DNA from: Betaproteobacteria bacterium | GTDB taxonomy: Bacteria; Pseudomonadota; Gammaproteobacteria; Burkholderiales; CAIKXV01 | Reading direction: 5' to 3' | Assembly (NCBI GenBank): GCA_947458265.1 | Contig: CANGYF010000009.1 | Span: 66,544-130,543, forward strand | Length of the DNA stretch: 64,000 bases | Part shown: positions 1 through 47,326 of the stretch, in pieces | How the letters are laid out: the number at the start of each line of letters is the position of its first letter | Position numbering within the stretch: position 1 is the stretch's first letter | Notes under the pieces: model-generated | Seen by the model: the letters and a program-made list of their open reading frames with translations, nothing else | Database searches by the model: none | What the model was told of the DNA's origin: nothing | Translations under genes and position numbers: made by a program

Positions 1-950
1 ACTTCCGTATCCCAGTACTGATCGCGCTCCTGGGTGGTGGCGATGAAGTGCTCGCGCCGGTCCTCGATCCACTTCACCGGCCGGCCGCACAGGCGCGCGG
101 CGAGCGTCACGCAGATCTCCTCCGGATAGGTGACCAGCTTCGGTCCGAAGCCGCCGCCGACATCCGGCGTCGCCACGCGGATCTGGTTCTCGTGCAGGCC
201 GAGGATCTCGCAGATCACGCGCATCGCTGCATGCGGCATCTGGGTGGAGCTCCACAGCGTCGTACGGTCTTCCAGCGCATCATGGCGCGCGACGCAGCCC
301 CGGCATTCGATCGAATGGCTGCCGCCGCGGTGCTGCCAGAACGATTCGCTGAACACGTGCTTCGCCTCGGCGAACACGCGCTCGGTCTCGCCGTAGGTCA
401 TGTCGAACTCGGCAAGCAGGTTGTGCGGCGACTCGCGATGCACCAGCGGTGCATCGGCCGCGAGCGCAGCCCGGCAGTCCGACACAGCCGGCAGCGGATC
501 GAAGTCGACATCGACCAGAGTCGCCGCATCCTCGGCGATGTAGCGCGTATCGGCGAGCACGATCGCGACCGGTTCGCCGACATGGACCGCTTCGTCGGCG
601 GCAAGCACCTGCCGGTTGTGGTCCTGCTTGTAGTGCGAGCTCGGCAGGCCGACCACCAGACGGTCGGTGGCGAAATGCGGCTTGAAGTCTTCGTAGGTGT
701 AGACCGCATGCACGCCGGGCAGCGCGAGCGCAGCCGAGGCATCGATGCTGCGGATCGCCGCATGGGCATGCGGGCTGCGCACGAACGCCGCCTGCAGCAG
801 GCCGGGCATGTGGATGTCGTCGACGAAGCGGCCGCGGCCGGTGATCAGTGCATCGTCTTCCAGGCGCGGGATGCTGGCACCGATCAGGCTGTCGCCCGGG
901 CGCGAAGGATCGACGATCGGCGGCATGGCAGTCGTAGCAGTCGTGCTCAT
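1..950 (-). CDS. Molybdopterin-binding large subunit of a xanthine-dehydrogenase/CoxL-family hydroxylase (set 1). Only the N-terminal ~316 aa are present; the 3' end runs off the window.
   Basis: Absent from the ORF track because it has no stop in the window. Manual reverse translation from the ATG at 950-948 gives MSTTATTAMPPIVDPSRPGDSLIGASIPRLEDDALITGRGRFVDDIHMPG..., a typical CoxL/XdhB-family N-terminus. ATGA overlap with the stop of the upstream 2Fe-2S subunit (947). Confidence 0.85.
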   Translation of the reverse strand, partial: MSTTATTAMPPIVDPSRPGDSLIGASIPRLEDDALITGRGRFVDDIHMPGLLQAAFVRSPHAHAAIRSIDASAALALPGVHAVYTYEDFKPHFATDRLVVGLPSSHYKQDHNRQVLAADEAVHVGEPVAIVLADTRYIAEDAATLVDVDFDPLPAVSDCRAALAADAPLVHRESPHNLLAEFDMTYGETERVFAEAKHVFSESFWQHRGGSHSIECRGCVARHDALEDRTTLWSSTQMPHAAMRVICEILGLHENQIRVATPDVGGGFGPKLVTYPEEICVTLAARLCGRPVKWIEDRREHFIATTQERDQYWDTE

Positions 951-1456
951 CGCACACCTCCTGCCGCGGCCGTACCGCGCATCGTCTTCGCAGCGGCCAG
1001 CGTCGCATCGACGATCGCCTGGTAGCCGGTGCAGCGGCACAGGTTGCCCGAGATCGCAACCCGGACCTCGGCCTCGGTCGGGTCCGGGGTGTCGTTCAGC
1101 AGTTCAACCAGCGTGGTCAGCATGCCCGGCGTGCAGAAGCCGCACTGCAGGCCGTGCAGGTCCTTGAACGCCTGCTGCAGCGGATGCAGCGTGCCATCGG
1201 CGGCCGCGATGCCTTCGACTGTCGTCACCTCGCGGCCGTTAGCCTGTACCGCGAGCATCAGGCAGCCGCGGGCGGAGCGCCCGTCCACCAGTACGGTGCA
1301 GGCGCCGCACACGCCGTGTTCGCAGCCCAGGTGGGTACCGGTCAGCTCCAGCTGGTGGCGCAGGAAGTCGGCCAGCGTATGCCGGACATCCACCGTCGCC
1401 TGCACGGCGCGGCCGTTGATCTTCAGCGAGATGCTGCGGGAAAGCGTCGAGTCCAT
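947..1456 (-). CDS. (2Fe-2S)-binding small subunit of Mo-hydroxylase set 1 (CoxS-like)
   Basis: ORF 947..1516 trimmed to the internal MDSTLSRSISLKINGR start. Contains GCEHGVCGACTV and CGFCTPG...CRCTGY, the two 2Fe-2S motifs of CoxS/XdhC-type subunits. Confidence 0.9.
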   Translation of the reverse strand: MDSTLSRSISLKINGRAVQATVDVRHTLADFLRHQLELTGTHLGCEHGVCGACTVLVDGRSARGCLMLAVQANGREVTTVEGIAAADGTLHPLQQAFKDLHGLQCGFCTPGMLTTLVELLNDTPDPTEAEVRVAISGNLCRCTGYQAIVDATLAAAKTMRGTAAAGGVR

Positions 1457-1469
1457 TCGTCTGCCTTGT

Positions 1470-2342
1470 TCAGTGTCCGGCCGGGGCGATGCTGGCCAGC
1501 GCCGCATCGAGCGCACGCCGCGACATCACGACGGCCAACTGCTGCCGGTACGACGCCGGCGCATGGATGTCTTCCATCGCCTCCAGCGCGCGGCAGGCCT
1601 CGGTCACCTGCCGGAACAGTGCCGGCGAGGCAACGTGCCCTACCAGCGCCTGCTCGACCGCAGCCACTCGGACCGGGGCCGGCCCGATGCCACCCAAGGT
1701 CAGCGAGGCCCGCGTGATCGTGCCGGCCGCGTCGGTCACCAGCAGCGCGGCAGCAAGCACCACCGCATAGTCACCATGCCTGCGCGCGAACTCGACGAAG
1801 CCATGTCCGTGGCCACGGGGCCAGTCGGGCAGTTCGATGTGCGTGAGCAGCTCGTCCGGCTCGAGCGACGGCGTCATGTAGCCGGCCGGGAACTCGGCGA
1901 ACGGCATCGTCCGGGTGCCGCGCGCGCTCTGCACGGTGATCGTCGCATCCAGCGCCGCGCACACCGACGGCAATTCCGCCGCCGGGTCGAGCTGGCAGAG
2001 CGAGCCGCCGATCGTGCCGCGATTGCGCGTCTGGCGATGGCCGACCCACTGGATCGCATCGACCAGCAGGGGGCAACGCGCACGCACCACCGCGGAATGC
2101 TCCAGGTCGCGCTGGCGCGTCATCGCGCCGATGCGCAGCGCCCCCGGGCGCTCCTCGATCGTGGACAGCGCGGCGATGCGCCCGAGGTCGACCAGGTGGT
2201 CGGGCATCACGAAGCGCATGTTGAGCATCGGCATCATCGACTGCCCGCCGGCGAGCAGGCGGGCATTGTCGAGGGATGCCATCAGGCTGCAGGCTTCCTC
2301 GACGGTGCCGGGGTCATGGTAGGCGAAGGCGGGCGGTTTCAT
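1470..2342 (-). CDS. FAD-binding medium subunit of Mo-hydroxylase set 1 (CoxM-like)
   Basis: 290 aa. AGGQSMMPMLNMR and RNRGTIGGSL motifs are typical of the FAD_binding_5/CO_deh_flav_C medium subunits. Lies directly upstream of the small and large subunits. Confidence 0.88.
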   Translation of the reverse strand: MKPPAFAYHDPGTVEEACSLMASLDNARLLAGGQSMMPMLNMRFVMPDHLVDLGRIAALSTIEERPGALRIGAMTRQRDLEHSAVVRARCPLLVDAIQWVGHRQTRNRGTIGGSLCQLDPAAELPSVCAALDATITVQSARGTRTMPFAEFPAGYMTPSLEPDELLTHIELPDWPRGHGHGFVEFARRHGDYAVVLAAALLVTDAAGTITRASLTLGGIGPAPVRVAAVEQALVGHVASPALFRQVTEACRALEAMEDIHAPASYRQQLAVVMSRRALDAALASIAPAGH

Positions 2343-3443: not shown

Positions 3444-5819
3444 CTACGCAGGGACGGCGCCGCGCTGCTTCAGAAGGGCCTTCAGCCGCTGCGGCGTCAC
3501 CGGCAACCGCGTGATCGCATTCGGGATGCCGATCGCGTCGTCGATCGCCGCTGCGATCGCCGCACCGACGCCGGTGATGCCTGCCTCGCCAGCACCTTTC
3601 ATGCCGAGTGCGTTGTTGGGGCTGGGTGCATCCTCGGTCAGCAGCACATCGACCGGCGGCATTTCGTTGGCGGTCGGCATCAGGTAGTCGGCAAAGGTCA
3701 CCGACAGTGGCTCGCCGCGCTCGTCGTAGACGAACTCCTCGAACAGTGCGCCGCCCAGGCCCTGCGCGACGCCGCCGACGATCTGCCCTTCGACCAGCAT
3801 CGGGTTGATCGCGCAGCCGATGTCGTAGGCGACATGGAATCGCTCGACCTTCGTCTCGCCGGTATCGGGATCGACCTTCACCAGCGCGGTATGGATGCCG
3901 TACGGATGGGTCATGCCGGCGGTCTCGAACCAGCCCTCGGCGGTCAGGCCGGGATTGCCGAACTCGACCGTGGCGGGGCTGGGCGCAAGCGCTGCAGCCA
4001 CCTTGCCGATCGGGATGCCGGGCTCGCCCGGCCGGTCGATGCGCACCACCTGCCCGTCGACGATGTCGAGCATCTCGACCGGTGCCTCGACCAGGTGCCG
4101 CGACGCGAACTCGAGCGCCTTGCGCCGCACGTTCAGTGCCGCCATGCGCGTGGCGCCACCGGTCATCACCGTCGCGCGCGAGGCATGCGAACCGATGCCG
4201 TACTCGAGCACGTCGGTGCGGCCGTGGATCACCTTCACGTCGCGGTACTCGACGCCAAGCGCATCGGCGGCGATCTGCGCCATCACGGTCTCGACGCCCT
4301 GCCCGATCGAGGACGCACCCGTGATCACCTGCACCTTGCCCTTCGTGTCGACCGTGACCTTCGCGCCGTCCACCGGCCCCAGGCCGCCCTTCTCCATGAA
4401 GAAGCCCATGCCGACGCCGACCAGCTCACCCTTTGCACGCCGCGCGGCGACCTGCGCCTGCAATTCGTCCCAGCGGATGTCCACCAGCGTCTTTTCGAGC
4501 AGGCCGGCGAAATCGCCGGAGTCGAGTTCGACCGCATGGTCCAGGATCTCCATCGCCCGCGCGTAGGGGTAGGCTTCCTTCGGGATCAGGTTGCGCCGCC
4601 GGATCTCGATGCGCGACAGCCCGAACTGTTCCGCCGCCGCATCCATCAGTCGTTCGCAGGCGTAGGTGGATTCGAAGCGCCCCGGCGATCGATAGGTGGC
4701 CGCCGGCGTCTTGTTGGTCATGCGCACGTAACCGACCGTACGATAGGACGGCACATGGTAGGCGCCGATCAGCGTACCCATCGCCATGTCGGGCACGCGC
4801 GCACCGTGGGTGCGCACATAGGCACCCTGGTCGTGCCAGAGCTTCGCGTCGATCCCCAGCAACCGGCCGTCCTTGTCGAACGCGCCGCGTACCACGTGGC
4901 GCTGTTCACGCGAGTGGTTGCAGGCGAGCAGGTTCTCGCGCCGGTCCTCGACCCATTTCACGGGACGGTCGAAGCGCTGGGCCGCGAGGCAGGTCAGCAC
5001 GTCCTCCGGGTAGATCTCGCCACGCACGCCGAAGCCGCCGCCGATGTGGCCTTCATAGAAGTGCATGCTGGCCGGGCTGCGCCCGATCAGCGTCGCCACC
5101 GCATCGCGGTGCGCATGCGGCCGCTTGCCCTGGCCGTAGCACTCGAGCACGTCGCGCGAGTGGTCGATGCGCGCGAGCGCGCCGCGGTTCTCCATCGGCA
5201 CGCCGGAATGGCGACCGACCTGCACGTCGACCTCGACGACCTTGAACGCGCTGCTCAGCGCCGACTCGATGTCGCCGAAGTTCTTGCGCAGCACCAGCGC
5301 CTCGGTGGACAGGCCGGGGGCGAATTCACCCGGCGCCGTGTCGGCCGACAGGATCACCGGCAATGCCTCGCCATCCATCGTCACCAGGTCGGCGATGTCC
5401 TCGGCGACATACGGATCATCGGCGAACACCACGGCGATCGGCTCGCCCACATAGCGCACCCGGTCACGCGCGAGGATGTACTGCCGGTAGGGCTCCAGCC
5501 CCTGGATGCTGGTCGGCCGGAAGGTGATCGGCGGGATGTCGGCGACGTCGGCGCCGGTCCACACGCCACGGCAGCCCGGGTGCGCCAGCGCAGCCGAGGT
5601 GTCGATCGAGCGGATGATCGCGTTCGCATACGTCGAGCGCACCACGCGCATGTGCAGCTGGTGCGGGAAGTTCAGGTTGCCGACATAGGTGCCGCGGCCG
5701 GTGACCAGCGGCGGATCCTCGAGCCGGGTGACGCGCTGGCCGACGAACTTGCGGCGCGGGTTGACGTCGCCGTTGTGGCGCTCGCCATGCTTCAGGCTGG
5801 ACGGTCCGTGGTCGCTCAT
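3444..5819 (-). CDS. Molybdopterin-binding large subunit of Mo-hydroxylase set 2 (xanthine dehydrogenase/aldehyde oxidase/CoxL family)
   Basis: 791 aa. N-terminus GQRVTRLEDPPLVTGRGTYVGN. Active-site-loop region reads ATYRSPGRFE, not the VAYRCSFR of true CO dehydrogenase. 4-nt overlap with the upstream small subunit. Confidence 0.9.
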   Translation of the reverse strand: MSDHGPSSLKHGERHNGDVNPRRKFVGQRVTRLEDPPLVTGRGTYVGNLNFPHQLHMRVVRSTYANAIIRSIDTSAALAHPGCRGVWTGADVADIPPITFRPTSIQGLEPYRQYILARDRVRYVGEPIAVVFADDPYVAEDIADLVTMDGEALPVILSADTAPGEFAPGLSTEALVLRKNFGDIESALSSAFKVVEVDVQVGRHSGVPMENRGALARIDHSRDVLECYGQGKRPHAHRDAVATLIGRSPASMHFYEGHIGGGFGVRGEIYPEDVLTCLAAQRFDRPVKWVEDRRENLLACNHSREQRHVVRGAFDKDGRLLGIDAKLWHDQGAYVRTHGARVPDMAMGTLIGAYHVPSYRTVGYVRMTNKTPAATYRSPGRFESTYACERLMDAAAEQFGLSRIEIRRRNLIPKEAYPYARAMEILDHAVELDSGDFAGLLEKTLVDIRWDELQAQVAARRAKGELVGVGMGFFMEKGGLGPVDGAKVTVDTKGKVQVITGASSIGQGVETVMAQIAADALGVEYRDVKVIHGRTDVLEYGIGSHASRATVMTGGATRMAALNVRRKALEFASRHLVEAPVEMLDIVDGQVVRIDRPGEPGIPIGKVAAALAPSPATVEFGNPGLTAEGWFETAGMTHPYGIHTALVKVDPDTGETKVERFHVAYDIGCAINPMLVEGQIVGGVAQGLGGALFEEFVYDERGEPLSVTFADYLMPTANEMPPVDVLLTEDAPSPNNALGMKGAGEAGITGVGAAIAAAIDDAIGIPNAITRLPVTPQRLKALLKQRGAVPA

Positions 5820-6313
5820 CGCGCCCCTCCCTGGCCGGCATCGCGCACCTGGCGTACCGCGCGCAGGATGTTCTGGTAGCCGGTGCAGCGACAGAGGTTG
5901 GAGGACAGCACCTCGCGCAGCGATTCATCGTCGATGTCGGGCTGCTGTTCGAGCGTGCCTGCGGCCAGCATCAGGAAGCCGGAGGTGCAGAAGCCGCACT
6001 GCAGCGCATGGTTGTCGATGAACGCCTGCTGCAACGCATGCAGCTTGCCGCCATCCTTCGACGAGGCTGCCAGGCCCTCGACCGTGCGCAGCTCGCGGCC
6101 CTGCGCCTGCACCGCGAACATCAGGCAGGAGCGCACCGGCGCGCCGTCCATCAGGACGGTGCAGGCACCGCAGACACCGTGCTCGCAGCCCACGTTGGTG
6201 CCGGTGAGCCCGCACTCGCCGCGCAGCGCGTCAGACAGCGTCTTGCGCGGTTCGACGCGGATCTCGTGCTCGGTTCCGTTCACGTTGAGCGTGATCGCCA
6301 TCTTCGATGCCAT
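5816..6313 (-). CDS. (2Fe-2S)-binding small subunit of Mo-hydroxylase set 2
   Basis: ORF 5816..6682 trimmed to the MASKMAITLNVNG start (ATG at 6313-6311). Contains GCEHGVCGACTV and CGFCTSG...CRCTGY motifs. Confidence 0.9.
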   Translation of the reverse strand: MASKMAITLNVNGTEHEIRVEPRKTLSDALRGECGLTGTNVGCEHGVCGACTVLMDGAPVRSCLMFAVQAQGRELRTVEGLAASSKDGGKLHALQQAFIDNHALQCGFCTSGFLMLAAGTLEQQPDIDDESLREVLSSNLCRCTGYQNILRAVRQVRDAGQGGAR

Positions 6314-6317
6314 CGGA

Positions 6318-7175
6318 TCAGTCCCCTGCCTGCGCATACGCGCGCCGCACCGCCGTGCCGACCAGGTCGCGGCGATAGTCGGCGGTGGTATGGATATCCT
6401 CGAGCGGATCGACGTCCGCCGACACCGCTGCCGCTGCGGCGGCGATCGCATCCGGGCTGGCGACGCGTCCCTCGAGCAGGGCTTCGGCCACCGTGATGCG
6501 CCGTGGCTGCACCTCGACGCTGCCGGTGCCGATGCGCACCTCGCGCATCGTGCCGCCGTCGTCGCGCCACGCCACCAGCGCCATCGCCAGCGCGTAGTCG
6601 CCTGCACGCCGGCTGAATTCATAGAACCCGGCGCGGCTACCGGCGGGCAGCAGCGGCAATCGCACTTCGGCAAGCAGTTCATCTTCTTCGAGCGCGGTGG
6701 TCATGATGCCCTGGAACCATTCGGACGCTTCGATCACCCGTTCGCCGCGCACACTGCGCGCGACCATGCGCGCGCCGAGGGTTGCCGCGACCAGGCACCA
6801 CTCCGAGGCCGGATCGGCATTGGCCAAGCTGCCGCAGAAGGTGCCGCGCTGGCGTATCGGATAGTGCGCGATGTTGTGCACGACCTGCGTCAGCAGCCGT
6901 CCGAGCGGGCCGGGTTCGACCGGCGCATGGAAAGCGGCATGGCGCACGCAGGCGCCGATCACCAGGTCGCCACCTTCGACGCGCACGCGCGAGAATTCCT
7001 CGACGCCGTTGATGTCGATCAGGTGCGACGGGAAGGCCAGGCGCAGCGCCATGCTGGGCACCAGGCTCTGCCCGCCGGCGATCACCCGGCCGTCCTGCGG
7101 CGCGTACTCGGCCAGCAGCGCGACCGCTTCATCGGCGCTGCGCGCCGGGTGCCACTCGAACGACCCTGCCTTCAT
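6318..7175 (-). CDS. FAD-binding medium subunit of Mo-hydroxylase set 2
   Basis: 285 aa. AGGQSLVPSMALR and RQRGTFCGSLANADP motifs. Syntenic with the small and large subunits. Confidence 0.88.
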   Translation of the reverse strand: MKAGSFEWHPARSADEAVALLAEYAPQDGRVIAGGQSLVPSMALRLAFPSHLIDINGVEEFSRVRVEGGDLVIGACVRHAAFHAPVEPGPLGRLLTQVVHNIAHYPIRQRGTFCGSLANADPASEWCLVAATLGARMVARSVRGERVIEASEWFQGIMTTALEEDELLAEVRLPLLPAGSRAGFYEFSRRAGDYALAMALVAWRDDGGTMREVRIGTGSVEVQPRRITVAEALLEGRVASPDAIAAAAAAVSADVDPLEDIHTTADYRRDLVGTAVRRAYAQAGD

Positions 7176-7852
7176 GGTTTCTTTCCGCCGAACAGGTTGC
7201 GCAACGACGCGAGCAGTGCGCCGAACAGCAGCGAGAAGCCGGAGATCGGCTTCACCGCCTGGGTCGCTGCCGGTGCCGGCCGGGTTGCCGCTGCTGCAGC
7301 CGTATCGGCCGCCGGAGCAGGGGCGCTCGCTCCCGCAGGGGCATCGGCCGCCATCGCGGCAGCGGGCGAGGTGACGACTTGCGCCGCCGCCCTGCTCTCG
7401 AGGATGCGTGCACGCAGGCAGTCGCCGAACTGGCCGATCAGCTGCGCGGCGACGCTCTGGATCATGCCCGAGCCACGGCCATACTGGGCGACCGATCCGG
7501 TCAGCGTGACGTTGCTGTGGATGTCGACGCGGGTGCTGGATCCATCGCCGATCGGCTGCAGCGAGAAATCGATCAGCGCCGAGGTGCTGCCGCGGCCCTT
7601 GGAATCGGCACCGGTCGCACGCATGCGGGCGCGATGCGCGGCGGCATCGGTTTCCTCCAGCTTGGCCTGGCCGACGAAGGACAGCGCGACCGGACCCAGG
7701 CGTACGCCGACCTTGCCCTTGTACGTCTGCGCATCGACCACTTCGGTGAGCTCGGCGCCCGGCAGGCAGGTGGCGATGCGCTCGATGTCGAGCAGCCAGG
7801 TCCAGGCCTCGGCAGGCGGCAGCGGTACATCGAACGCGTTGTCGAATTCCAT
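7172..7852 (-). CDS. CoxG-like SRPBCC-family protein with an Ala/Pro-rich C-terminal tail
   Basis: 226 aa. MEFDNAFDVPLPPAEAWTWLLDIERIATCLPGAEL... resembles carbon monoxide dehydrogenase subunit G (COXG) family proteins. 4-nt overlap with the FAD subunit. Confidence 0.75.
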   Translation of the reverse strand: MEFDNAFDVPLPPAEAWTWLLDIERIATCLPGAELTEVVDAQTYKGKVGVRLGPVALSFVGQAKLEETDAAAHRARMRATGADSKGRGSTSALIDFSLQPIGDGSSTRVDIHSNVTLTGSVAQYGRGSGMIQSVAAQLIGQFGDCLRARILESRAAAQVVTSPAAAMAADAPAGASAPAPAADTAAAAATRPAPAATQAVKPISGFSLLFGALLASLRNLFGGKKP

Positions 7853-7910: not shown

Positions 7911-8987
7911 TCAGCTGCCCGTGTCGGTCACCCGCCACTCGATCTGTTCACCGCCACGATAGACCAGCGCACGCCCGTCCGGACCGTCGATCTTTATCTC
8001 TTCCGGCGCGGTCCAGGTGCTGCGCTCGAGGGTGATCGTGCCAGCGTTGACCGGCAGGCCATAGTGCAGCGGCCCGTTCAGCGAGGTGAAGCCTTCCAGC
8101 TTGTCGAGTGCCCCCGCCTGTTCGAACACCTTCGTGTACTGCTCGATCGCCACCGGCGAGTTGAACAGCCCTGCCGACCCGACCACGGCCAGCTTGCGCT
8201 CGACCGGATGCGGTGCAGAGTCGGTGCCGAGGAAGAAGCACTTGTCGCCGGAGGTCGCAGCCTCGACCAGCGCGCGCCGGTCGGCTTCGGTCTTGATCAC
8301 CGGCATGCAGTAGAGGTACGGACGGTTGCCCCAGCCGAGCCAGTCGGTGCGGTTGTGCGTGAGATGGTAGGGCGTGATCGTGGCGCCGACCTGCGGCGCT
8401 GCGCTGCGGATGTAGTCGACCGCGATCTTCGAGCTGATGTGCTCGAGCACGAACTTCAGCCCCGGGAAATCCTTGGTCCAGGGCTGCAGCCGGCGCTCGA
8501 TCCAGACCGCCTCGCGGTCGAACACGTCGACCTCGGGATCGACTTCCTCGCCATGCATCAGCAGCGGGATGCCGATCTTCTCCATGCGCGCCATCACCGG
8601 CCGGATCTTCCGGTAGTCGGTGACGCCCGCCGCCGAGTTCGTGGTGGCATTGGCGGGATACAGCTTGACCGCCGTGAACACGCCATCGCGGAAGCCTGCC
8701 TCGACCTCGTCCGGATCGGTCATGTCGTGCAGGTAGCAGGTCATCATCGGCTGGAACGTCGACCCCTCGGGCAGCGCCTGGTGGATGCGCTCGCGGTAGG
8801 CGATCGCATCCTTCACCGTGGTCACCGGCGGCAACAGGTTGGGCATGATGATCGCCCGTCCGAAGTTGCGCGCGGTGAACGGCAGCGACGCCTTGAGCAT
8901 CGCGCCGTCGCGCACATGCAGGTGCCAGTCGTCCGGCTTGCGGATGGTGATGCGGTCGACGGAAGGAGCAGGAGTGTTCTGTGCCAT
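7911..8987 (-). CDS. pyrC: Dihydroorotase, homodimeric type II (E. coli PyrC-like)
   Basis: 358 aa, collinear with E. coli PyrC. Conserved motifs: DDWHLHVRD, AVKLYPANATTNS (carboxylated Lys plus substrate loop), LLMHGE, LEHIS, FLGTDSAPH. Confidence 0.9.
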   Translation of the reverse strand: MAQNTPAPSVDRITIRKPDDWHLHVRDGAMLKASLPFTARNFGRAIIMPNLLPPVTTVKDAIAYRERIHQALPEGSTFQPMMTCYLHDMTDPDEVEAGFRDGVFTAVKLYPANATTNSAAGVTDYRKIRPVMARMEKIGIPLLMHGEEVDPEVDVFDREAVWIERRLQPWTKDFPGLKFVLEHISSKIAVDYIRSAAPQVGATITPYHLTHNRTDWLGWGNRPYLYCMPVIKTEADRRALVEAATSGDKCFFLGTDSAPHPVERKLAVVGSAGLFNSPVAIEQYTKVFEQAGALDKLEGFTSLNGPLHYGLPVNAGTITLERSTWTAPEEIKIDGPDGRALVYRGGEQIEWRVTDTGS

Positions 8988-9000
8988 CGTGGCCTCGCGT

Positions 9001-9948
9001 TCAGCTGATGCCCATCATACCGGCCTCGTAGGTATCGCGCGGCGGGTGGTCGATCATCGACCCCGTGAGCTCCGACACCTTCGCCACGCCATGCGCCTCG
9101 CACCACTTCTCGATGCCATCGATCATCGCGATCATCGCCGTCGGGTTGCGGAAGCTGGCATAGCCGACCTGTACCGCACTGGCACCGGCCATCATGTACT
9201 CGATCACGTCTTCCGCGCGCGAGATGCCGCCGACGCCGATGATCGGAATCTGCACGCACTTCGAGCACTGGTGGACCATGCGCATGATGATCGGGCGCAC
9301 GCCCGGGCCGGAGATGCCGCCATAGCCGTTGCCGATGTGCGACAACCGGCTCTCGATGTTGATCTTCAACCCGAGGATGGTGTTGGACACGGTGATCGCG
9401 TTCGCACCGCCCTTCTCGGCGGCCTCCGCCACGGCGCCGATCTCGCCGGCGTTGGGTGAGAGCTTGGCCCAGATCGGCAGCTGCGTCGCCTCGCGGCAGA
9501 GCTTCACGACCTTGTAGGTGTGCTCTTCATTCAGTGCGAAGTTGCCGCCGCCGGGGGCACGCGTCGGGCACGAGATGTTGATCTCGATCGCATCGACGCC
9601 CGGCACCGACACGTCGCGCGCCATCGCCGCGAAGTCCTCGATGCTCTCGGCCGAGATCGAGCACACCAGCGGCGGCGTGAAGCGCTTGTACTCGGCGACC
9701 TGCACGTCCTGGAAGTACTTCAGCCCCTTGGTCGGCAGGCCGATGGAGTTGATCATGCCGGAGTCGATCTCCGACACCCGTGGCGGCGGGTTGCCCGCAC
9801 GATAGCCGCGCGAGACGGTCTTGGCCACCAGCGCGCCGAGGCGGTTGAGGTCGATGATCTGCGAGAACTCGACCGAGAAGGTGCCCGAGGCGGGCATCAC
9901 CGGGTTGGCCAGCTTCACGCTGCCGATGTTGACCGAGAGATCTACCAT
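9001..9948 (-). CDS. pyrD: Dihydroorotate dehydrogenase catalytic subunit, class 1B-like (PyrD B type)
   Basis: ORF 9001..10413 trimmed to the MVDLSVNIGSVKLANPVMPASG start (ATG at 9948-9946). Motifs NSIGLPTKG, EINISCPT (class-1 catalytic Cys), GGISGPGVRP and IIGVGGI match L. lactis PyrDb-type enzymes. Confidence 0.85.
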   Translation of the reverse strand: MVDLSVNIGSVKLANPVMPASGTFSVEFSQIIDLNRLGALVAKTVSRGYRAGNPPPRVSEIDSGMINSIGLPTKGLKYFQDVQVAEYKRFTPPLVCSISAESIEDFAAMARDVSVPGVDAIEINISCPTRAPGGGNFALNEEHTYKVVKLCREATQLPIWAKLSPNAGEIGAVAEAAEKGGANAITVSNTILGLKINIESRLSHIGNGYGGISGPGVRPIIMRMVHQCSKCVQIPIIGVGGISRAEDVIEYMMAGASAVQVGYASFRNPTAMIAMIDGIEKWCEAHGVAKVSELTGSMIDHPPRDTYEAGMMGIS

Positions 9949-10808
9949 CCCAGGCACTCCTGCAGGTCGAAAACGGGGCCTTCCACGCACACCCGGCGCA
10001 TCTCCTTCTGGCCGTTGCGTTCGAAGGTACGCACGCAGATGTAGCAGGGGCCCAGGCCGCAGGCCATGATCTGCTCCATCGCCATCTGGCCGGGGATGTC
10101 GAACTCGCGGCCCAGCTTCTTCATCAGCTGCATCAGCCGGTTCGAGCCGCAGGTGAAGAACGCATCGGCGCGCTTCTCGGCGATCAGCTGGCGCAGGATC
10201 TTCTCGACGTTGTCGATGTTGCTGGTGCCGTCGGTGTCGAGCACCTTCACCACGCTGCCCACGCTCTCGAACAGGTCGGCTGCCAGCGCGAGGTCGGGAC
10301 TGCGCGCCGACAGGATGGCGGTGACGCGCACCCCCTTCTCGCCAGCGAACTGCGAGATCGGCGCCATCGTCGCCAGGCCCACGCCGCGGCCAAGCACGAC
10401 GATGTTCTTCCACTCGGGCTTCAGGTGGAAGCCGACGCCCAGCGGGCCGACCATGTTCAGCTCGTCACCGGGCTTGAGCGTCGCCAGACCCTTGGTGCCG
10501 CGGCCGACGACCTTGTAGAGGAACTCGAGGCGGCCGCTGGAGCGCTGGATGCGGTACACCGACTGCGGGCGGCGGAACCACAGCTCACCCTCGTCCGGCG
10601 ACGGGCACAGCAGGTGGAAGAACTGGCCGGGCTGGGCGGCGAGCGCCTTCGGCGTGGCCTTCACCACCAGGTGCTTGTATTCCTCGTTCACCCACTCGTG
10701 CGCGACGACTGGGACGATCGATTCCTCGGCCGGGCACTGCGGCGGCGAATGGCCGGTCCCGGGTTCGCCCACCTTCACGGCGGCGGTGGCAAACATACCT
10801 TGTGACAT
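9942..10808 (-). CDS. pyrK: Dihydroorotate dehydrogenase electron-transfer subunit-like (PyrK-type FAD/NAD plus 2Fe-2S)
   Basis: ORF trimmed to MSQGMFATAAVKV (ATG at 10808, GGAGGA Shine-Dalgarno sequence upstream). C-terminus MACGLGPCYICV...RVCVEGPVF is the PyrK 2Fe-2S motif. 7-nt overlap with pyrD. Confidence 0.8.
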   Translation of the reverse strand: MSQGMFATAAVKVGEPGTGHSPPQCPAEESIVPVVAHEWVNEEYKHLVVKATPKALAAQPGQFFHLLCPSPDEGELWFRRPQSVYRIQRSSGRLEFLYKVVGRGTKGLATLKPGDELNMVGPLGVGFHLKPEWKNIVVLGRGVGLATMAPISQFAGEKGVRVTAILSARSPDLALAADLFESVGSVVKVLDTDGTSNIDNVEKILRQLIAEKRADAFFTCGSNRLMQLMKKLGREFDIPGQMAMEQIMACGLGPCYICVRTFERNGQKEMRRVCVEGPVFDLQECLGW

Positions 10809-10946: not shown

Positions 10947-10983
10947 GGCTTTTCCAAAAAAAGAGACGGTTCGTGACGCCCGG

Positions 10984-11865
10984 TCAGCGGTGCTTCGCGA
11001 TCAGCCCGCGCAGGAACTTCGCGGCGGCAGCCCCCTTCAGCGCCCGGCTCCACATTTCCTCGGCCGCCTTCTGGTGCAGGGCCAGGGCCTCGGGCGCGGA
11101 GGTGATCATCGCCACGCCGATGCGCACGTTCGGCTGTTCGCCCAGGCGGAACGGCGACAGCACCAGCACCTGCCGGTCCGGCTGGCGCAGGATCTGGAAG
11201 CTGGCATGCGGCAGCGTGTCGGGCACGATGCCTATCTGGATGCCGATCGGCTGCTCCTCGGTCAGCTTCGCGAAGCGCGTGACCTCTCGCACCGCCTGGG
11301 CGCGGCGCTCGGCACGGACCGCCTCGTCGAGGTCGAGGCGGCCGACCAGGCCGTTGTGCAGGAAGCGTTCGATCTCGCTCGCCGAGATCAGGTTGACCAC
11401 CGCCGGTTGGCGCCGCTGGTACTGAGCCTTGCGCGCATGCAGGATCGCCATGATCTCGCCGACCTCGGCGATCGCCCGCTCCCGGCCGGGCAGGTCGGCC
11501 GGGATGCTCTCGGTCAGCACCTCGGCGAGTGTGGCGTCGAAAGCGTCCGACGCGAGCAGGTAGGAGATCGGCCCGGCCAGCACGATGATCTGCTCGGCGG
11601 TCTCTTCGTTCTGGCGCAGCCGCTCGAAGTAGGCCACGGCCGAGGCAATGTACTCGACGCCGACGCCGAGCAGCGTCGGCACCGACACGCCGAGCAGTTC
11701 CGACAACCGGCCGAGCGTCTCGATCTTTGCCAGTTCGCCCTTCTCGAAGCGATAGAGCGCCGCGCGCGAGATCTCGAGCCGGCGCGCGATCTCGTCGGCC
11801 GACAGCCCGGAGCCGAGGCGGAAGGCACGCAGCCGGTTTCCGATGTCGTCGAATCGAATGGCCAT
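10984..11865 (-). CDS. XRE-family helix-turn-helix transcriptional regulator with a ~220-aa uncharacterised C-terminal domain
   Basis: MAIRFDDIGNRLRAFRLGSGLSADEIARRLEISRAALYRFEKGELAKIETLGRLSELLGVS is a classic HTH_XRE domain. ATG at 11865 is preferred over the GTG at 11877. Confidence 0.8.
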   Translation of the reverse strand: MAIRFDDIGNRLRAFRLGSGLSADEIARRLEISRAALYRFEKGELAKIETLGRLSELLGVSVPTLLGVGVEYIASAVAYFERLRQNEETAEQIIVLAGPISYLLASDAFDATLAEVLTESIPADLPGRERAIAEVGEIMAILHARKAQYQRRQPAVVNLISASEIERFLHNGLVGRLDLDEAVRAERRAQAVREVTRFAKLTEEQPIGIQIGIVPDTLPHASFQILRQPDRQVLVLSPFRLGEQPNVRIGVAMITSAPEALALHQKAAEEMWSRALKGAAAAKFLRGLIAKHR

Positions 11866-12158: not shown

Positions 12159-13598
12159 ATGTCGATGGAAAACCAGGACCTCCGGAGCTGGCTCGCACGC
12201 ATGGAAGCCGCGGGCGAACTGCAGCATGTGAGCGGCGCCGAGCGGATGGAAGAGATCGGCGGCATCGTCGACATCTACCAGCGCAAGATGGGTCGCCAGG
12301 CGCTGCTGTTCGACGACGTGCCGGGCTATCCGCGCGGCTACCGCGTGCTGGCCAACGTGCTGACCTCGGTGCGCCGCATCGCGATGACGCTCGGCCTGCC
12401 CGACGATTCCACCGAGATGGACCTGGTGCGCTACTGGCGCAACTACATCGGCGGCGCGAACACGCACAAGCCCGAGGTCGTGAAGACCGGCAAAGTGCTC
12501 GAGAACGTGCTCTACGGCAAGGACATCGACCTGCTGAAGATCCCGACGCCCAAGTGGCACGAGGACGACGGCGGCCCGTACATCGGCACCGGCTGCATGG
12601 TGATCATGAAGGATCCGGACTCGGGCTGGATCAACTACGGCGCATACCGTGGGCAGGTATTCGACAAGGCCATCGCCACCGTGATGTGCTCGAAGGGCAA
12701 GCACGGCGACCTGCTGATGCAGAAGTACTTCGCGCGCGGCGAGCGCTGCCCGATCGCGGTGGTGGTCGGCGTGCATCCGGCACTGTTCATGGTCGCCGGC
12801 CTGGAGATCCCGTACGGCAAGAACGAGTACGAGGCAGCCGGAGCGCTGATCGGTGAACCGGTGCAGGTGATCGAGGGCCCGATCACCGGGTTGCCGATCC
12901 CGGCACATGCCGAGATCGCCTACGAAGGCTTCGTGTCGCCGGATGACCGGATCGACGAAGGCCCGCTCGGCGAATGGACCGGCTACTACTGCAGCGGCAA
13001 GTCGCCGCAGCCGGTGATCCGGGTCGAGTCGATGCTGCATCGAAACGACCCGGTGCTGCTGGGCGTGGTGCCGGCGGTACCGCCGAACGACGACAGCTAC
13101 TACCGCGGCCACTTCCGCGCAGGGGCGGTGTGGCGCCAGCTCGAGGGCGCCGGCATCCCCGGGGTCACCGGGGTCTGGTCGCACGAGGCCGGCGGCGGAC
13201 GCTACTGGCTCACGGTGGCGGTGAAGCAGATGTATCCCGGCCACTCGAAGCAGGTCGGGCTGGTCGCAGGCCAGGTGCATGCCGCCGCCTACTGCAACCG
13301 CTACGTGGTCGTGGTGGACGACGACATCAACCCGGCCAACATGGACGAGGTGGTCTGGGCGATGTGCACCCGGGTCGACCCGCGCGAGGACGTCGAGATC
13401 CTGAAGGGCTGCTGGAGCACGCGCCTGGACCCGATGTCCTATCCGGCGGAAGAGCCGGTGCTCAACTCGCGCATGGTCATCGATGCCTGCCGGCCGTGGA
13501 TCAAGCGCGCGACCTTCCCGGCGGTGGCACGCTCCAGCCCGGGGCTGGACGCACGCATCCGCGAGAAGTTCGGCGACGTGCTGCCCAAGGGGTTCTGA
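12159..13598 (+). CDS. UbiD-family (prFMN-dependent) aromatic/heteroaromatic acid decarboxylase
   Basis: ORF 11727..13598 trimmed to MSMENQDLRSWL (ATG at 12159, GGGAGA Shine-Dalgarno sequence). 479 aa. Shows UbiD hallmarks: LLFDDVPGYP, GGPYIGTG and EGPLGEWTGYY (the E-x-P-x-G-E-x-x-G-Y motif). Confidence 0.85.
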   Translation: MSMENQDLRSWLARMEAAGELQHVSGAERMEEIGGIVDIYQRKMGRQALLFDDVPGYPRGYRVLANVLTSVRRIAMTLGLPDDSTEMDLVRYWRNYIGGANTHKPEVVKTGKVLENVLYGKDIDLLKIPTPKWHEDDGGPYIGTGCMVIMKDPDSGWINYGAYRGQVFDKAIATVMCSKGKHGDLLMQKYFARGERCPIAVVVGVHPALFMVAGLEIPYGKNEYEAAGALIGEPVQVIEGPITGLPIPAHAEIAYEGFVSPDDRIDEGPLGEWTGYYCSGKSPQPVIRVESMLHRNDPVLLGVVPAVPPNDDSYYRGHFRAGAVWRQLEGAGIPGVTGVWSHEAGGGRYWLTVAVKQMYPGHSKQVGLVAGQVHAAAYCNRYVVVVDDDINPANMDEVVWAMCTRVDPREDVEILKGCWSTRLDPMSYPAEEPVLNSRMVIDACRPWIKRATFPAVARSSPGLDARIREKFGDVLPKGF

Positions 13599-17458: not shown

Positions 17459-17962
17459 TCAGAACGGAATATCGTCCTCGAAATCGTCGAAACCCGGGCC
17501 GCCGCCCTTGGCGGCTGCCGGCGCCGGCTTGCCGCGGGCTGCGCCGCCGCCGGACGAGCGCGGCGAATCGCCATCGCCCATCGAATCGCCGCCACCCATG
17601 CGGTCAGCGCCGGGTGCGCCGGCACCGCCGCGGCTGCCCAGCAGTTGCATGCTGTCGGCGACGATCTCGGTCGTGTAGCGCTCGATGTTCTCCTTGTCGG
17701 TCCACTTGCGGGTGCGCAGGCGGCCCTCGACGTAGACCGGCGAACCCTTCTTCAGGTATTCGCCCGCAATCTCGGCCAGCCGGTTGCGCAGCGTGACCCG
17801 ATGCCACTCGGTCTCTTCCTTCTTGTCGCCGGACGCCTTGTCCTTCCACGAATAAGTCGTGGCCAGGTTCAGGTTGCACAGCGCATTGCCGTCGGGCATG
17901 TAGCGCACTTCAGGGTCGCGACCGAGGTTGCCGACCAGGATGACCTTGTTCACAGATGCCAT
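17459..17962 (-). CDS. ssb: Single-stranded DNA-binding protein
   Basis: [36 protein letters not shown]... OB-fold domain, a Gly-rich linker and the acidic tail DDFEDDIPF. Confidence 0.97.
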
Positions 17963-17996: not shown

Positions 17997-19250
17997 TCAA
18001 GCCTTGGATGGATGGGCGTTCCCGGTGTCGCCTGCCGCCGGCGCATCGCCGGGCCGGCCCGGTGAGCGCATGTCGGCCGCGATGGCCAGCCAGGCCACCG
18101 TCAGCAGCACGCAGAACCAGAGCACGGCGGCCAGACCGGCAGTCTGCGCAAGGATGCCGCCGACCGCGCCGCCGAGAAAGATCCCGAGAAACTGGATACT
18201 GCTGTATACCCCGATCGCAGTGCCGCGCAAGTGGCGCGGCGCGAGTCGAGAGACGAGGGAGGGCAGCAGCGCCTCCAGCACGTTGAATGCGATGAAGAAA
18301 GCCGCCAGCGCGGCGCCGGTGCCGACGACCGAATCGAGGGTCAGCAGGAAGGCACCGAACGCACCCAGCGTCAGCACGATGCAGGCCAGGAACACCTGCT
18401 TCAGGCGGTGCCGGCCCTCGGCATAGCCGATCGCCGGCACCAGGACCGCAAAGCTCGCGAGCATCGCCGGCCAGTAGACATGCCAGTGGTCGGCCACCGG
18501 CATCCCGGCGTCGCGCAGGGACACCGGCACCACCAGGAACAGCGCGGTCAGCAGCGCATGCAGCACAAGCACGCCGAAGTTCAGGCGGCGCAGCTCCGGT
18601 TCGGCCAGCACCGCGGCCAGATCGGCACGGAAGCGGCCGCGCACCGGCCGCCGGTCGCCGTCGCCCGCTGCCGCCCGGCCTTCCCCCGGTGCTGGCGGTT
18701 CCGGCACCAGCCAGCGCACCACGCCGATGGCAAGCAGGGCCAGCACGCCGGTCATCGCGAAGATGCCGCCCACGCCGATCGCGGCGTTGAGCGGCGGGCC
18801 CGAGATCAGCGACACCGCGAACGCGATGCCGATGGTGGAGCCGATGATCGCCATGGCCTTCGAGCGCTGGCTGTCGCGGGTGAGGTCGGCGGTGAGGGCG
18901 ATCACCACCGCCGAGATCGCGCCAGCGCCCTGCAGCATTCGCCCGAGGATCACTATCCAGATGTCGCTGGCCGAGGCGGCGACGAAACTGCCCAGCGCGA
19001 ACAGCGCCAGGCCGAAGTAGATGACCGTCTTGCGTCCGAAGCGGTCGGAGGCCCAGCCGAACGGAACCTGCAGCAGGGCCTGGGTCAGCCCGTAGATGCC
19101 GATCGCAATGCCGATCAGGAAACGGTTGTCGCCGCCGGACAGGCGGTCCGCGTACACGGCGAACACCGGCAGGATGATGAACAGCCCGAGCATGCGCAGC
19201 CCGTAGAGGGCGGACAGCGCGAGGCTTGCGCGCCATTCGAGGGCGTTCAT
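17997..19250 (-). CDS. MFS transporter
   Basis: 417 aa with about 12 hydrophobic helices. [13 protein letters not shown] is the MFS loop 2-3 motif. It sits in the uvrA-MFS-ssb arrangement common in Burkholderiales. Confidence 0.85.
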
Positions 19251-19366
19251 CGACGGGGCGCCGCGGCGGCAGGCTGGACGGGAACGGTCACTGGGGACTT
19301 GTGGACAGGTGTCTCGGTTATAGTAACAGGTTGCCTTTTTTACACGGCGTGGCTGGCAGGGCGGGC

Positions 19367-22273
<2,907 letters not shown>

Positions 22274-29998: not shown

Positions 29999-30077
29999 AC
30001 GCGATGCAAGCCCGGCAGGCCGGGCACCTGGCCTCTGGTTCACCGCTGCAGGGACGTGATTGGGCACCGTGGCGGCC

Positions 30078-37289: not shown

Positions 37290-37412
37290 TTTTCGCACGG
37301 GTGACCGCTTCGACGGCGACGCGGCTGCAACCCAGCATGACGACATCAAGCGGACGATCATACTCGATCAATATGACAGGCCAGAAGGCCGCGCGAAGGC
37401 CCCCGAGGGCGC

Positions 37413-38225
37413 TCAGCGCGATGGCCTGGCAGCCGTCGCCGCTTCGAGCGGGGCCACCGGGGTGCATCCGGGGCATCCCGGCAGGGCGAACTCGAACATG
37501 CCAGGCGCGCGCTCGACGCCCGTCTCGCGCAGCAGCGGCAGCAACTGCTCGCGCACCCCCGGCGCCACCGACGCGCGCAGGTACGCCTGCTCCAGCCGCG
37601 CCTCCCGCCACGCAGCCTCCCCCGCCAGTTCGAGGTCCCCTCCGCGCGTGACCAGCCGCGCACGCGCCGAACCACCGTGCGCATCGACCTCGATCCGGTA
37701 ATCGCCGAGGACGATACCCGGCAGGTGGCGCGACCGCGCTTCGGACCAGTCGATACTCGCCTGCACCCGCCAGCCGCCGCGCTCGTGCGCGAGCGCCTGC
37801 ACCTGGAGCCGCGGCCGCCCGGCCAACGCGAGCGCCGCGGTATGCGGCCACAGCGCCACCAGCGCTTCAGCCGGGAGTGCCAGCTCGAACGGTGCTGCGG
37901 TCAGCGTGCCCACGCCCAGTTCGACCGCGACGTCCCGCGCGTCGAGCTGCAGGACGAGCGCCAGCACCGGGCGCAGGCCCGGCAGCGGGCGTACGCGCCA
38001 TTGCACTGGCCAGGAAGCGATCGGGACACCCGCGGGCGAGCGCCACTGCAGTCGGCCCGCGCCGTGCCAGAGGCCACCGCGCGCCTCCAGCAGCCGCAGC
38101 TGACCGGCAGAACGCGTGGCCAGCGCGCGATCGAGCCAGGTGGCCGGCGCGAGCAGGACCAGGGCCAGCGCCAGCACGACGATGGCGCAGCCCGCGCGCA
38201 GCAGCAGGCGATCCACGGTCAGCAA
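37413..38225 (-). CDS. gspN: Type II secretion system protein N
   Basis: 270 aa with an N-terminal TM helix, then LEARGGLWHGAGRLQW, typical of GspN. It is the last gene of the gspG-N string. Confidence 0.75.
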   Translation of the reverse strand: MLTVDRLLLRAGCAIVVLALALVLLAPATWLDRALATRSAGQLRLLEARGGLWHGAGRLQWRSPAGVPIASWPVQWRVRPLPGLRPVLALVLQLDARDVAVELGVGTLTAAPFELALPAEALVALWPHTAALALAGRPRLQVQALAHERGGWRVQASIDWSEARSRHLPGIVLGDYRIEVDAHGGSARARLVTRGGDLELAGEAAWREARLEQAYLRASVAPGVREQLLPLLRETGVERAPGMFEFALPGCPGCTPVAPLEAATAARPSR

Positions 38226-38240
38226 CCCTCGCCCGGCGCT

Positions 38241-42332: not shown

Positions 42333-42396
42333 GCCGCCGCAATCGTGGCCGCAACCGTGGCCGAACTCGTGACCGAACTCGGGGCGCAGGCGCCGC

Positions 42397-42852: not shown

Positions 42853-43047
42853 CGGTCCATCCATGATCGACAGAGTGTCCCCCATCCTTCGCACGGCAGT
42901 CAAAGCGGGCAGGCGCGCCACACACGCTCAGCGCGCGCGCCTCGGCGCGCAGGCAAACCGCTATACACTATCCGAGGGCAAAGCATGTGCGTGCGATCGC
43001 CACCGCGTCGCGACGCGCGCAAACGATGCGGGACACGTGGGGGGGAC

Positions 43048-45812: not shown

Positions 45813-45819
45813 CTGCGCC

Positions 45820-47319: not shown

Positions 47320-47326
47320 CGCGGCC

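Follow-up and report, generated by a model that had tools for sequence, protein, structure and literature searches.

Pyrimidine-type dihydroorotate dehydrogenase and dihydroorotase genes linked to molybdenum hydroxylases in uncultured Proteobacteria: a candidate module for catabolism of an orotate-like ring

Fermentation of orotate has been known since the 1950s. In Clostridium oroticum (Lieberman and Kornberg), it reportedly depends on an NADH-dependent orotate reductase, which is a class-1B dihydroorotate dehydrogenase (DHOD), a dihydroorotase and a ureidosuccinase. A PyrK/PyrD-type flavoprotein and a dihydroorotase, for which the same reduce-then-open direction is proposed, are encoded together in the stretch investigated here, 64,000 nucleotides of a 720-kb metagenome-assembled scaffold of a betaproteobacterium (the window; contig CANGYF010000009.1). 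Positions are window coordinates, and a prime (pyrK′, pyrD′, pyrC′) marks the pyr-like genes of the window's clade. Unlike C. oroticum, this is an aerobic-type proteobacterium with no carbamoylase, in which the trio is coupled to molybdenum (Mo) hydroxylases and a UbiD decarboxylase, the catalytic loop of PyrD′ reads NISCPTR, and the substrate is possibly not orotate. Comparative evidence supports well both the view that an orotate-degrading operon gave rise to the trio, as a catabolic module that is accessory and regulated, and the predicted functional tie of the trio to the two Mo hydroxylases and the UbiD decarboxylase. It is proposed, with a probability a little short of even (about 0.45), that this module reduces and opens an orotate analogue, citrazinate being the leading candidate.

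DHOD B of Lactococcus lactis (the PyrDb/PyrK heterotetramer; structures 1EP1-1EP3) shares with the window proteins the fold and cofactor residues, the catalytic Cys, the Lys, three of the four orotate-binding Asn residues and a partner subunit with FAD and four Cys. The window proteins differ from it in a PyrD that is approximately 40 % identical, in the replacement of one Asn by Thr-Arg, in the change of VGTA to VG(Y/F)A and in an extra N-terminal segment of PyrK′. Nicotinate fermentation by Eubacterium barkeri uses nicotinate dehydrogenase, 6-hydroxynicotinate reductase and enamidase, and therefore has Mo-dependent hydroxylation beside the nitrogen, reduction of a pyridone and ring opening by a member of the amidohydrolase superfamily in common with the scheme proposed here; its reductase and hydrolase, however, are unrelated to those of the cluster, and the reductase is ferredoxin-dependent. 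For isonicotinate, Mycobacterium sp. INA1 is said to use two Mo hydroxylases to form citrazinate, which is converted via a reduced 2,6-dioxopiperidine-4-carboxyl compound to tricarballylate. The window would match this in its two Mo hydroxylases, ring reduction, hydrolytic opening and tricarboxylate end, a likeness of chemical logic; in contrast, the INA1 route uses CoA thioesters, and no CoA ligase is conserved in the cluster found in metagenome-assembled genomes (MAGs).

The enzyme pair and its direction are known already from orotate fermentation, as is the three-step logic from E. barkeri. What is new is the coupling of DHOD B and dihydroorotase to Mo hydroxylases and UbiD, the Thr-Arg subtype of PyrD′, the presence in the same clusters of a class-2 DHOD and an orotate phosphoribosyltransferase (OPRT), and how widely the clade extends among uncultured bacteria.

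The trio and its conserved neighbours

The preliminary description of this region had placed the three genes in one string, with a 7-nt overlap between pyrK′ and pyrD′, a 13-nt gap between pyrD′ and pyrC′, and 58 nt from pyrC′ into the CoxG and Mo-hydroxylase genes. The coordinates bear this out in full; the ATG of pyrD′ overlaps the stop codon of pyrK′, and all of these genes are on the minus strand. The features are listed here in their minus-strand order (XRE, pyrK′, pyrD′, pyrC′, coxG, coxM/S/L, tctC, coxM2/S2/L2), followed by the divergent ubiD.

10984..11865, minus strand: XRE-family helix-turn-helix (HTH) regulator, 293 amino acids, its own transcription unit upstream of pyrK′ (Pfam HTH_31/HTH_3)
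10964..10981, minus strand: terminator-like hairpin and T-run directly 3′ of the XRE stop codon
10847..10904: inverted repeat, near-perfect, its 27-nt arms separated by 4 nt, in the XRE-pyrK′ interval, once in the window
9942..10808, minus strand: PyrK-like FAD/[2Fe-2S] electron-transfer subunit PyrK′, 288 amino acids, AGGAGG upstream of the start (PF10418)
9001..9948, minus strand: class-1B-type DHOD catalytic subunit PyrD′ of the 'TR' subtype with the NISCPTR loop, 315 amino acids (NF005574)
7911..8987, minus strand: type II dihydroorotase-like cyclic amidohydrolase PyrC′, 358 amino acids (TIGR00856)
7172..7852, minus strand: CoxG (SRPBCC) with a hydrophobic C-terminal tail (PF06240)
6318..7175, minus strand: Mo-hydroxylase set 1, FAD subunit (CoxM type)
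5816..6313, minus strand: Mo-hydroxylase set 1, [2Fe-2S] subunit (CoxS type)
3444..5819, minus strand: Mo-hydroxylase set 1, molybdopterin subunit CoxL1, 791 amino acids
2380..3369, minus strand: TctC/Bug-family periplasmic carboxylate-binding protein (PF03401)
1470..2342, minus strand: Mo-hydroxylase set 2, FAD subunit
947..1456, minus strand: Mo-hydroxylase set 2, [2Fe-2S] subunit
1..950, minus strand: Mo-hydroxylase set 2, molybdopterin subunit CoxL2, N-terminal part
12165..13598, plus strand: UbiD-family decarboxylase, dependent on prenylated flavin mononucleotide (FMN), divergent from the XRE gene (TIGR00148)

No terminator-like site lies within the string from pyrK′ to the cox genes, the one at 10964..10981 being the sole minus-strand site between 14000 and 1. 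The coxL2 gene runs off the window; its full product is 797 amino acids (locus L004, 10507-12900), and another tctC then follows. L005 also has the 27-nt-arm repeat, the two arms bearing corresponding changes, and L006-L010, which are 98-99 % identical, lack it; the repeat was therefore dropped as a conserved operator for the XRE regulator and may be a palindromic element that was inserted recently.

When each species was represented by one genome, 65 loci were recovered, all from MAGs and none from an isolate, belonging to Burkholderiales/Betaproteobacteria and to Alphaproteobacteria (Xanthobacteraceae, Stellaceae, and Micropepsaceae). The betaproteobacterial origin that had been suggested for the window agrees with its 98-100 % identical loci, which are Burkholderiales or Betaproteobacteria MAGs by record title. 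Several MAG records whose clusters are clearly of Burkholderiales type are labelled with unlikely organism names (Bordetella parapertussis, Klebsiella pneumoniae, Chitinophaga pinensis, Streptomycetaceae; L006, L018, L019, L021, L023, L030, L042, L045, and L046), and the titles of these are unusable for taxonomy.

The genes pyrK′ and pyrD′ adjoin in all 60 loci holding both. Context was counted on the 34 loci of at least 15 kb, among which an orthologue of a Mo hydroxylase or CoxG is present in 29, the XRE regulator in 20, and PyrC′ and UbiD in 19 each; across the 65 loci, the XRE gene is beside pyrK′ in 34, and CoxG and UbiD are found in 35 and 26, respectively. The recurrent neighbours are XRE, PyrC′, CoxG, the two Mo hydroxylases, a UbiD resembling PhdA, and TctC binding proteins. 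Gene order and orientation vary between lineages while the content is constant, over 62-100 % PyrK′ identity and two proteobacterial classes, which argues for a module kept together by function and not for inherited synteny. A deeper branch with 55 % identical PyrD has the same association; L072, for example, encodes PyrK, PyrD, an amidase, a PyrC-like protein, CoxL, and UbiD. There are 6533 PyrK′ homologues at E≤1e-10; the best 120 of the 6533 are all at least 80 % identical and nearly all metagenomic, and some single 90 %-identity clusters hold hundreds of member sequences. The literature search found no gene-level description of a Mo-hydroxylase-linked pyr cluster.

Judged by sequence, the CoxMSL sets are not carbon monoxide dehydrogenases. 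CoxL1 has the motif TYRSPGR, not AYxCSFR (form I) or AYRGAGR (form II), CoxL2 is without either motif, and both score below the carbon monoxide dehydrogenase cutoffs. Among solved structures, CoxL1 is closest to 6-hydroxypseudooxynicotine dehydrogenase (7DQX, E 3e-180) and quinoline 2-oxidoreductase. UbiD scores 280 bits on TIGR00148 (cutoff 245), and its best solved relative is 7PDA (E 1e-107), identified from the literature as the phenazine-1-carboxylate decarboxylase PhdA. The closest solved relatives of CoxL1 and UbiD thus both act on N-heteroaromatic compounds, in the case of PhdA on a carboxylate. A UbiX-like gene was not found in the window or the loci with E. coli UbiX as the query, and may be located elsewhere in the genome. 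A second UbiD paralogue, approximately 41 % identical to that of the window and with its own TctC genes, is present in L006-L010, L014, L017, L019, L024, L031, L045, and L046; in many Burkholderiales loci it lies between the UbiD and XRE genes, and it is missing from the window.

Clustering of unassigned reading frames in the loci identified additional members. An amidase-signature amidase is present in 14 of the 65 loci and a TcuA-like FAD dehydrogenase in nine (590 bits on NF006130, cutoff 369). Canonical OPRT is encoded in ten loci (375 bits on NF001729, cutoff 245; approximately 70 % identical to the solved OPRT 4OHC), and a canonical class-2, quinone-linked DHOD with the loop NISSPNTPGLR in 11 (476-493 bits on NF003645, cutoff 366). 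A check for a class-2 pyrD, as the preliminary description had suggested, was therefore positive in relatives, in 11 MAG species and in the same gene string as PyrK′D′ (L021, L022, L034, L036, L043, L048, L056, L057, L060, L061, and L065); in this unusual pairing, the 1B-like enzyme is an addition and not a replacement. Three strings recur: K′-D′-C′-OPRT-PyrD2 in L021, L036, and L043; K′-D′-C′-TcuA-amidase-CoxG-PyrD2-UbiD-CoxM2S2 in L056 and L057, the order K′-D′-C′-TcuA-amidase being shared by L051; and XRE-K′-D′-OPRT-amidase-PyrD2-TctC in L060, L061, and L065. FAD_binding_2 and aconitase-like genes near L070 and L071 were considered as support for a tricarboxylate product and rejected, the flavoprotein being KstD-like rather than TcuA-like and having genes of mobile-element type between it and PyrK/D. 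Eight loci (including L024, L026, L027, L038, L045, and L069) encode a conserved cytoplasmic protein, c15, of approximately 325 amino acids with a periplasmic-binding-protein fold, a weak match to Pfam Phosphonate-bd and no NCBIfam match; in L049 its gene immediately follows pyrK′. This protein is possibly a non-oxidative decarboxylase, the 4,5-dihydroxyphthalate-decarboxylase type being suspected.

The PyrD′ subtype and the plasmid operon of cultured relatives

PyrD′ scores 320 bits on NF005574 (cutoff 269) and 270.7 on TIGR01037 (cutoff 270), and its NISCP catalytic Cys and the FMN/orotate Lys43 align with L. lactis 1EP1. The enzyme keeps three of four conserved Asn residues that bind orotate; the fourth, directly after S-C-P, is Thr, followed by Arg, and the VGTA motif is altered to VG(Y/F)A. 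The class-1B-type catalytic subunit proposed earlier therefore stands as far as the family cutoff and the catalytic Cys are concerned, but NISCPT, which had been taken as its mark, is not the class-1B signature (this is NISCPN) and is a departure specific to the clade. All 64 Mo-hydroxylase-linked members checked (61 locus orthologues and three of the deeper branch) have NISCPTR. Among 50 %-identity representatives of PyrD′ relatives, there is a steep step in identity between the 11 that reach 50 % or more and the canonical 1B enzymes at 35-44 %; N-x-S-C-P-T-R is found in 11 out of 11 clade representatives, and N-x-S-C-P-N in 132 out of 139 others.

The counterpart of the replaced residue, Asn132 in class-1A (DHODA) numbering, is listed as one of those that form hydrogen bonds to the orotate nucleus (PMC12060061). 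With an orotate-contacting Asn changed to Thr-Arg, the substrate may be an orotate analogue, and the specificity of PyrD′ may have changed from orotate. PyrD′ belongs to the DHOD-B family by sequence, yet, since one defining substrate-binding residue is replaced, the function of a dihydroorotate dehydrogenase should not be assumed for it.

The nearest cultured relatives of this system are on plasmids. A protein search found 89 plasmid records with a PyrK homologue of 40-55 % identity, 53 of them from Klebsiella, while other carriers include Variovorax, Pseudomonas putida, Roseomonas, Neorhizobium, Nitratireductor, Agrobacterium, Burkholderia, and Cupriavidus. The operon consists of a transporter (MFS or TRAP), PyrK, PyrD, an M20 'Zn-dependent hydrolase', and PyrC, together with an HTH regulator and sometimes OPRT (Roseomonas, Variovorax, and Nitratireductor) or pyrF, which adjoins the operon in the Agrobacterium version. 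An example among the plasmid loci L073-L079 is L075, from K. pneumoniae (CP071170.1, 8941-14150). Against complete E. coli genomes, the Klebsiella operon gave no match by megablast, and no description of the plasmid operon was found in the literature search. On paper, the plasmid operon would be a complete route of the C. oroticum kind, with uptake, reduction of orotate, ring opening, and decarbamoylation to aspartate. The Klebsiella chromosome carries a class-2 pyrD and a pyrC, and the plasmid copies are therefore accessory; this sister operon offers a ready experimental system for orotate utilization. Several of the listed Klebsiella carriers were isolated from milk or bovine mastitis, and lacZY is beside the operon in CP071170.1, the one record examined for this. 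In L076 (Variovorax sp. RA8 plasmid 2, 780-6948), an amidase 52 % identical to that of the MAG clusters lies 5 kb upstream of the operon, with a polysaccharide-deacetylase-family protein and a hydantoinase/oxoprolinase A/B pair as neighbours; this may be another module for cyclic amides.

Between the window and the plasmid or chromid operons (Klebsiella, Variovorax sp. RA8, P. putida p716811-VIM, Roseomonas, Nitratireductor, and Agrobacterium), the core order is the same and identities are 40-52 % for PyrK, 46-51 % for PyrD, approximately 50 % for PyrC, and 40-46 % over the full length for the XRE/HTH regulators. Unlike the window, the plasmid operons have the MFS/TRAP transporter, the M20 hydrolase, and NISCPN, the last in six out of six enzymes checked, and are without Mo hydroxylases, CoxG, and UbiD. 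Conversely, neither the M20 hydrolase nor the MFS transporter has a credible match in the window or in 72 MAG loci. In a simple-distance neighbour-joining tree, the Thr-Arg type is monophyletic and stands beside the plasmid Asn type as a sister clade, both being apart from canonical 1B; mean PyrD identity is 49 % between the Thr-Arg and Asn types and 40 % to canonical enzymes. Subtype and neighbours correspond with no exceptions, Thr-Arg occurring with Mo hydroxylases and UbiD and Asn with the transporter and M20 hydrolase. This switch is a candidate specificity determinant open to direct test.

The PyrK-like FAD/2Fe-2S subunit that had been proposed is supported by PF10418, by the four-Cys [2Fe-2S], FAD, and nucleotide motifs, and by the overlap with pyrD. 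PyrK′ is below every NCBIfam PyrK cutoff (best 130 bits on NF004862, cutoff 220) and matches L. lactis PyrK (1EP3) at E 5e-25 with the four Cys kept. Invariant features are Cys250, Cys255, Cys258, and Cys274, RRPQS (the RxxS FAD motif), GRGVG (the GxGxG nucleotide motif) and, in 23 orthologues, GHSPxxCPAEE; an N-terminal extension of approximately 30 amino acids is conserved. PyrC′ scores 404 bits on TIGR00856 (cutoff 293). Alignment confirmed that its substrate loop PANATTNS and all metal ligands are kept: the binuclear-metal ligands (HxH, His, His, Asp), the carboxylated Lys, and the Arg/Asn/His binders of the substrate carboxylate are intact, and DWHLHVRD, MPN, KLYPANATTNS, HGE, EHxSS, and GTDSAPH are kept across orthologues. 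It shares 53 % identity with Burkholderia PyrC and 52 % with E. coli PyrC, these two being 57 % identical to each other. That PyrC′ is no closer to Burkholderia than to E. coli PyrC argues for a paralogue or xenologue, and not for the vertically inherited biosynthetic pyrC of the genome.

Proposed role and alternative explanations

The cultured sister operons, the placement in the tree, the class-2 DHOD in the same string, and the divergence of PyrC′ all point to an accessory module, and the trio is likely to be catabolic rather than biosynthetic. The preliminary description had suggested an orotate-reducing, ring-opening catabolic role. Its accessory and catabolic part is upheld by the Mo-hydroxylase link (29 out of 34 loci), the class-2 pyrD in 11, PyrC′ at 53 % identity, and the cultured operons that complete a C. 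oroticum-type route; the substrate, however, is possibly an analogue, given NISCPTR.

N-heterocycles can be degraded by hydroxylation beside the nitrogen to a lactam or imide, reduction of the conjugated double bond, and hydrolytic opening of the ring. In the scheme proposed here, TctC binding proteins would help in the uptake of a heteroaromatic carboxylate, which the two CoxMSL-type Mo hydroxylases would hydroxylate beside the nitrogen; the PhdA-like UbiD would strip a carboxyl group if needed, the product being an orotate-like 2,6-dioxo ring carboxylate. PyrK′ would pass electrons from NADH via FAD and [2Fe-2S] to the FMN of PyrD′, which would reduce the ring C=C, the DHOD-B reaction backwards, and PyrC′ would hydrolyse the cyclic amide or imide, the dihydroorotase reaction backwards. 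The amidase and TcuA-like FAD dehydrogenase would complete degradation in relatives, the XRE-type regulator would control the operon, and the class-2 DHOD and OPRT would protect synthesis of uridine monophosphate (UMP) from the reverse-acting enzymes, should these still accept the natural intermediates, or from inhibition by the analogue. We infer the direction of catalysis, the identity of the substrate, and the protective role.

Citrazinate is 2,6-dioxo-1,2,3,6-tetrahydropyridine-4-carboxylate, that is, orotate in which the NH beside the carboxyl-bearing carbon is replaced by CH2. It would be formed from isonicotinate or from pyridine-dicarboxylates, the latter fed in by UbiD, and would give tricarballylate monoamide, tricarballylate, and, by the TcuA-like enzyme, cis-aconitate. 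Since the opened product would be a carboxamide and not a ureide, an amidase would take the place of the carbamoylase. This route would account for the two Mo hydroxylases, the reductase, the imide-opening hydrolase, the amidase, the TcuA-like enzyme, and the altered loop. An NADH-linked and a quinone-linked DHOD acting on one substrate in one operon would form a futile cycle, which also argues for different substrates. Other candidates considered were dipicolinate via chelidamate, 6-hydroxypicolinate, 2,6-dihydroxynicotinate, pterin or lumazine, ectoine, the oxidative uracil/barbiturate route, and carboxylation of uracil by UbiD; these were set aside because they lack the imide or ureide geometry for a DHOD followed by a dihydroorotase, or leave the neighbouring genes unexplained.

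Several points weigh against citrazinate. Every functional statement made here is based on sequence, gene context, and residue patterns. A hydrogen bond to a carboxylate is still possible with Thr, and the specificity of the NISCPTR enzymes may therefore be unchanged. In PyrC′, every known dihydroorotate-binding residue is intact, which together with the canonical OPRT and class-2 DHOD suggests genuine orotate or dihydroorotate in the chemistry of the cluster; OPRT cannot use citrazinate, and its presence needs the extra hypothesis of protection. The TcuA-like protein fails the stricter TIGR02485 (265 bits, cutoff 372) and its nine loci are all outside the window's own lineage. A search of the 64-kb window with approximately 10 kb of flanks gave no amidase, TcuA, OPRT, class-2 pyrD, second pyrC, or M20 gene. 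To our knowledge, there is no established abundant natural source of isonicotinate-type compounds in lakes.

The strongest alternative is true catabolism of orotate, in which PyrK′D′ is an NADH:orotate reductase, PyrC′ opens dihydroorotate to N-carbamoyl-aspartate, and the amidase or an enzyme encoded elsewhere frees aspartate, CO2, and NH3 as in C. oroticum. The Mo hydroxylases and UbiD would then either produce orotate from pyrimidine carboxylates that are less oxidized or carry more carboxyl groups, or act on a parallel substrate, with the regulator in common. This is possible, and would fit the sister operons of cultured bacteria, which are complete orotate routes on paper, the near-canonical PyrC′, a PyrD′ that passes the NCBIfam DHOD cutoff, and OPRT beside PyrD′ in ten loci as well as in the Roseomonas, Variovorax, and Nitratireductor operons. 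It is nevertheless rather unlikely, as NISCPTR is specific to the clade whereas operons of the orotate type have NISCPN, and as the M20 hydrolase and a dedicated MFS/TRAP transporter are missing throughout the clade. An orotate reductase with a quinone-linked DHOD in the same cluster would run the futile cycle noted above, the TcuA-like enzyme would have no role, and we know of no natural precursor that gives orotate by two Mo-dependent hydroxylations and a decarboxylation.

A biosynthetic or compensatory role is improbable. PyrK′D′ and PyrC′, with OPRT and class-2 DHOD in relatives, would here run forward as an extra or inhibitor-insensitive branch to UMP, co-induced with a catabolic cluster whose compounds inhibit the housekeeping enzymes, and other proteins would reduce and open the heterocycle. 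Dihydroorotase, DHOD, and OPRT, three consecutive steps to UMP, are indeed in-cluster in L021, L036, and L043, an altered residue in the substrate loop is the expected look of a resistant target variant, and quinoline-4-carboxylates are known inhibitors of class-2 DHOD. However, PyrK′D′ comes from a clade in which the operons of cultured members, which also encode a transporter and a carbamoylase, are clearly catabolic. The order K′-D′-C′-TcuA-amidase looks like the successive steps of a breakdown pathway, biosynthesis would have no need of both a class-2 and a 1B-type DHOD in an operon, and the clusters share no other conserved candidate for the ring reductase.

That the trio and its Mo-hydroxylase and UbiD neighbours are together merely by shared ancestry or island co-transfer, as might be suspected from close relatives that are all MAGs of a few lineages and from five of the 34 long loci without orthologous Mo-hydroxylase genes within 10 kb, is very improbable given the same gene set in varied order and orientation across Beta- and Alphaproteobacteria, over a PyrK′ identity range of 62-100 % and again in the deeper branch (55 %), the operon-like spacing with no internal terminator in the window, and the perfect match of active-site subtype to neighbour type (64 versus 6).

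Returning to the orotate analogue, if a module of this kind is confirmed it would be the first gene-level handle on reductive degradation of orotate-type rings outside clostridia, and a case of pyrimidine-biosynthesis enzymes recruited into N-heterocycle catabolism. Annotation pipelines label these genes as pyrimidine biosynthesis, leading to misleading metabolic reconstructions. This large clade, for which all 65 genome loci recovered are from MAGs, may be a significant unrecognized sink for heteroaromatic carboxylates in lakes and soils. The fullest form of the proposal is that abundant uncultured freshwater and soil Burkholderiales and Alphaproteobacteria mineralize pyridine-4-carboxylates (isonicotinate or lignin-derived pyridine-dicarboxylates) by an aerobic pathway not described before, via citrazinate made by the two Mo hydroxylases and UbiD, a neofunctionalized DHOD B, a dihydroorotase paralogue, and the amidase and TcuA-like enzyme to cis-aconitate, which would enter the TCA cycle, with class-2 DHOD and OPRT as a shield of UMP synthesis; taken as a whole, this is unlikely.

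Other features of the window

The genes uvrA (19226-22273) and ssb (approximately 17459-17962, mapped from L001) mark the window as core chromosome. Between 48000 and 64000, G+C content falls from approximately 0.72 to approximately 0.63; SecY (52293-53618) is the sole gene identified there, and this part is taken to be a conserved ribosomal-protein/secY region and not foreign DNA. On the minus strand, 26207-30133 encodes a protein of 1308 amino acids with multihaem cytochrome c motifs and LVIVD repeats, and 34692-36428 an FHA-domain multihaem cytochrome of 578 amino acids. Both genes adjoin a type II secretion set (GspD, GspE, and GspL; 37400-48500), and the region may be an extracellular electron-transfer or metal-redox locus. 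Also on the minus strand, 22318-25752 encodes a fusion protein of 1144 amino acids, with two cyclic-nucleotide-binding domains, a pyridine-nucleotide-disulphide oxidoreductase domain, and 4Fe-4S ferredoxin domains.

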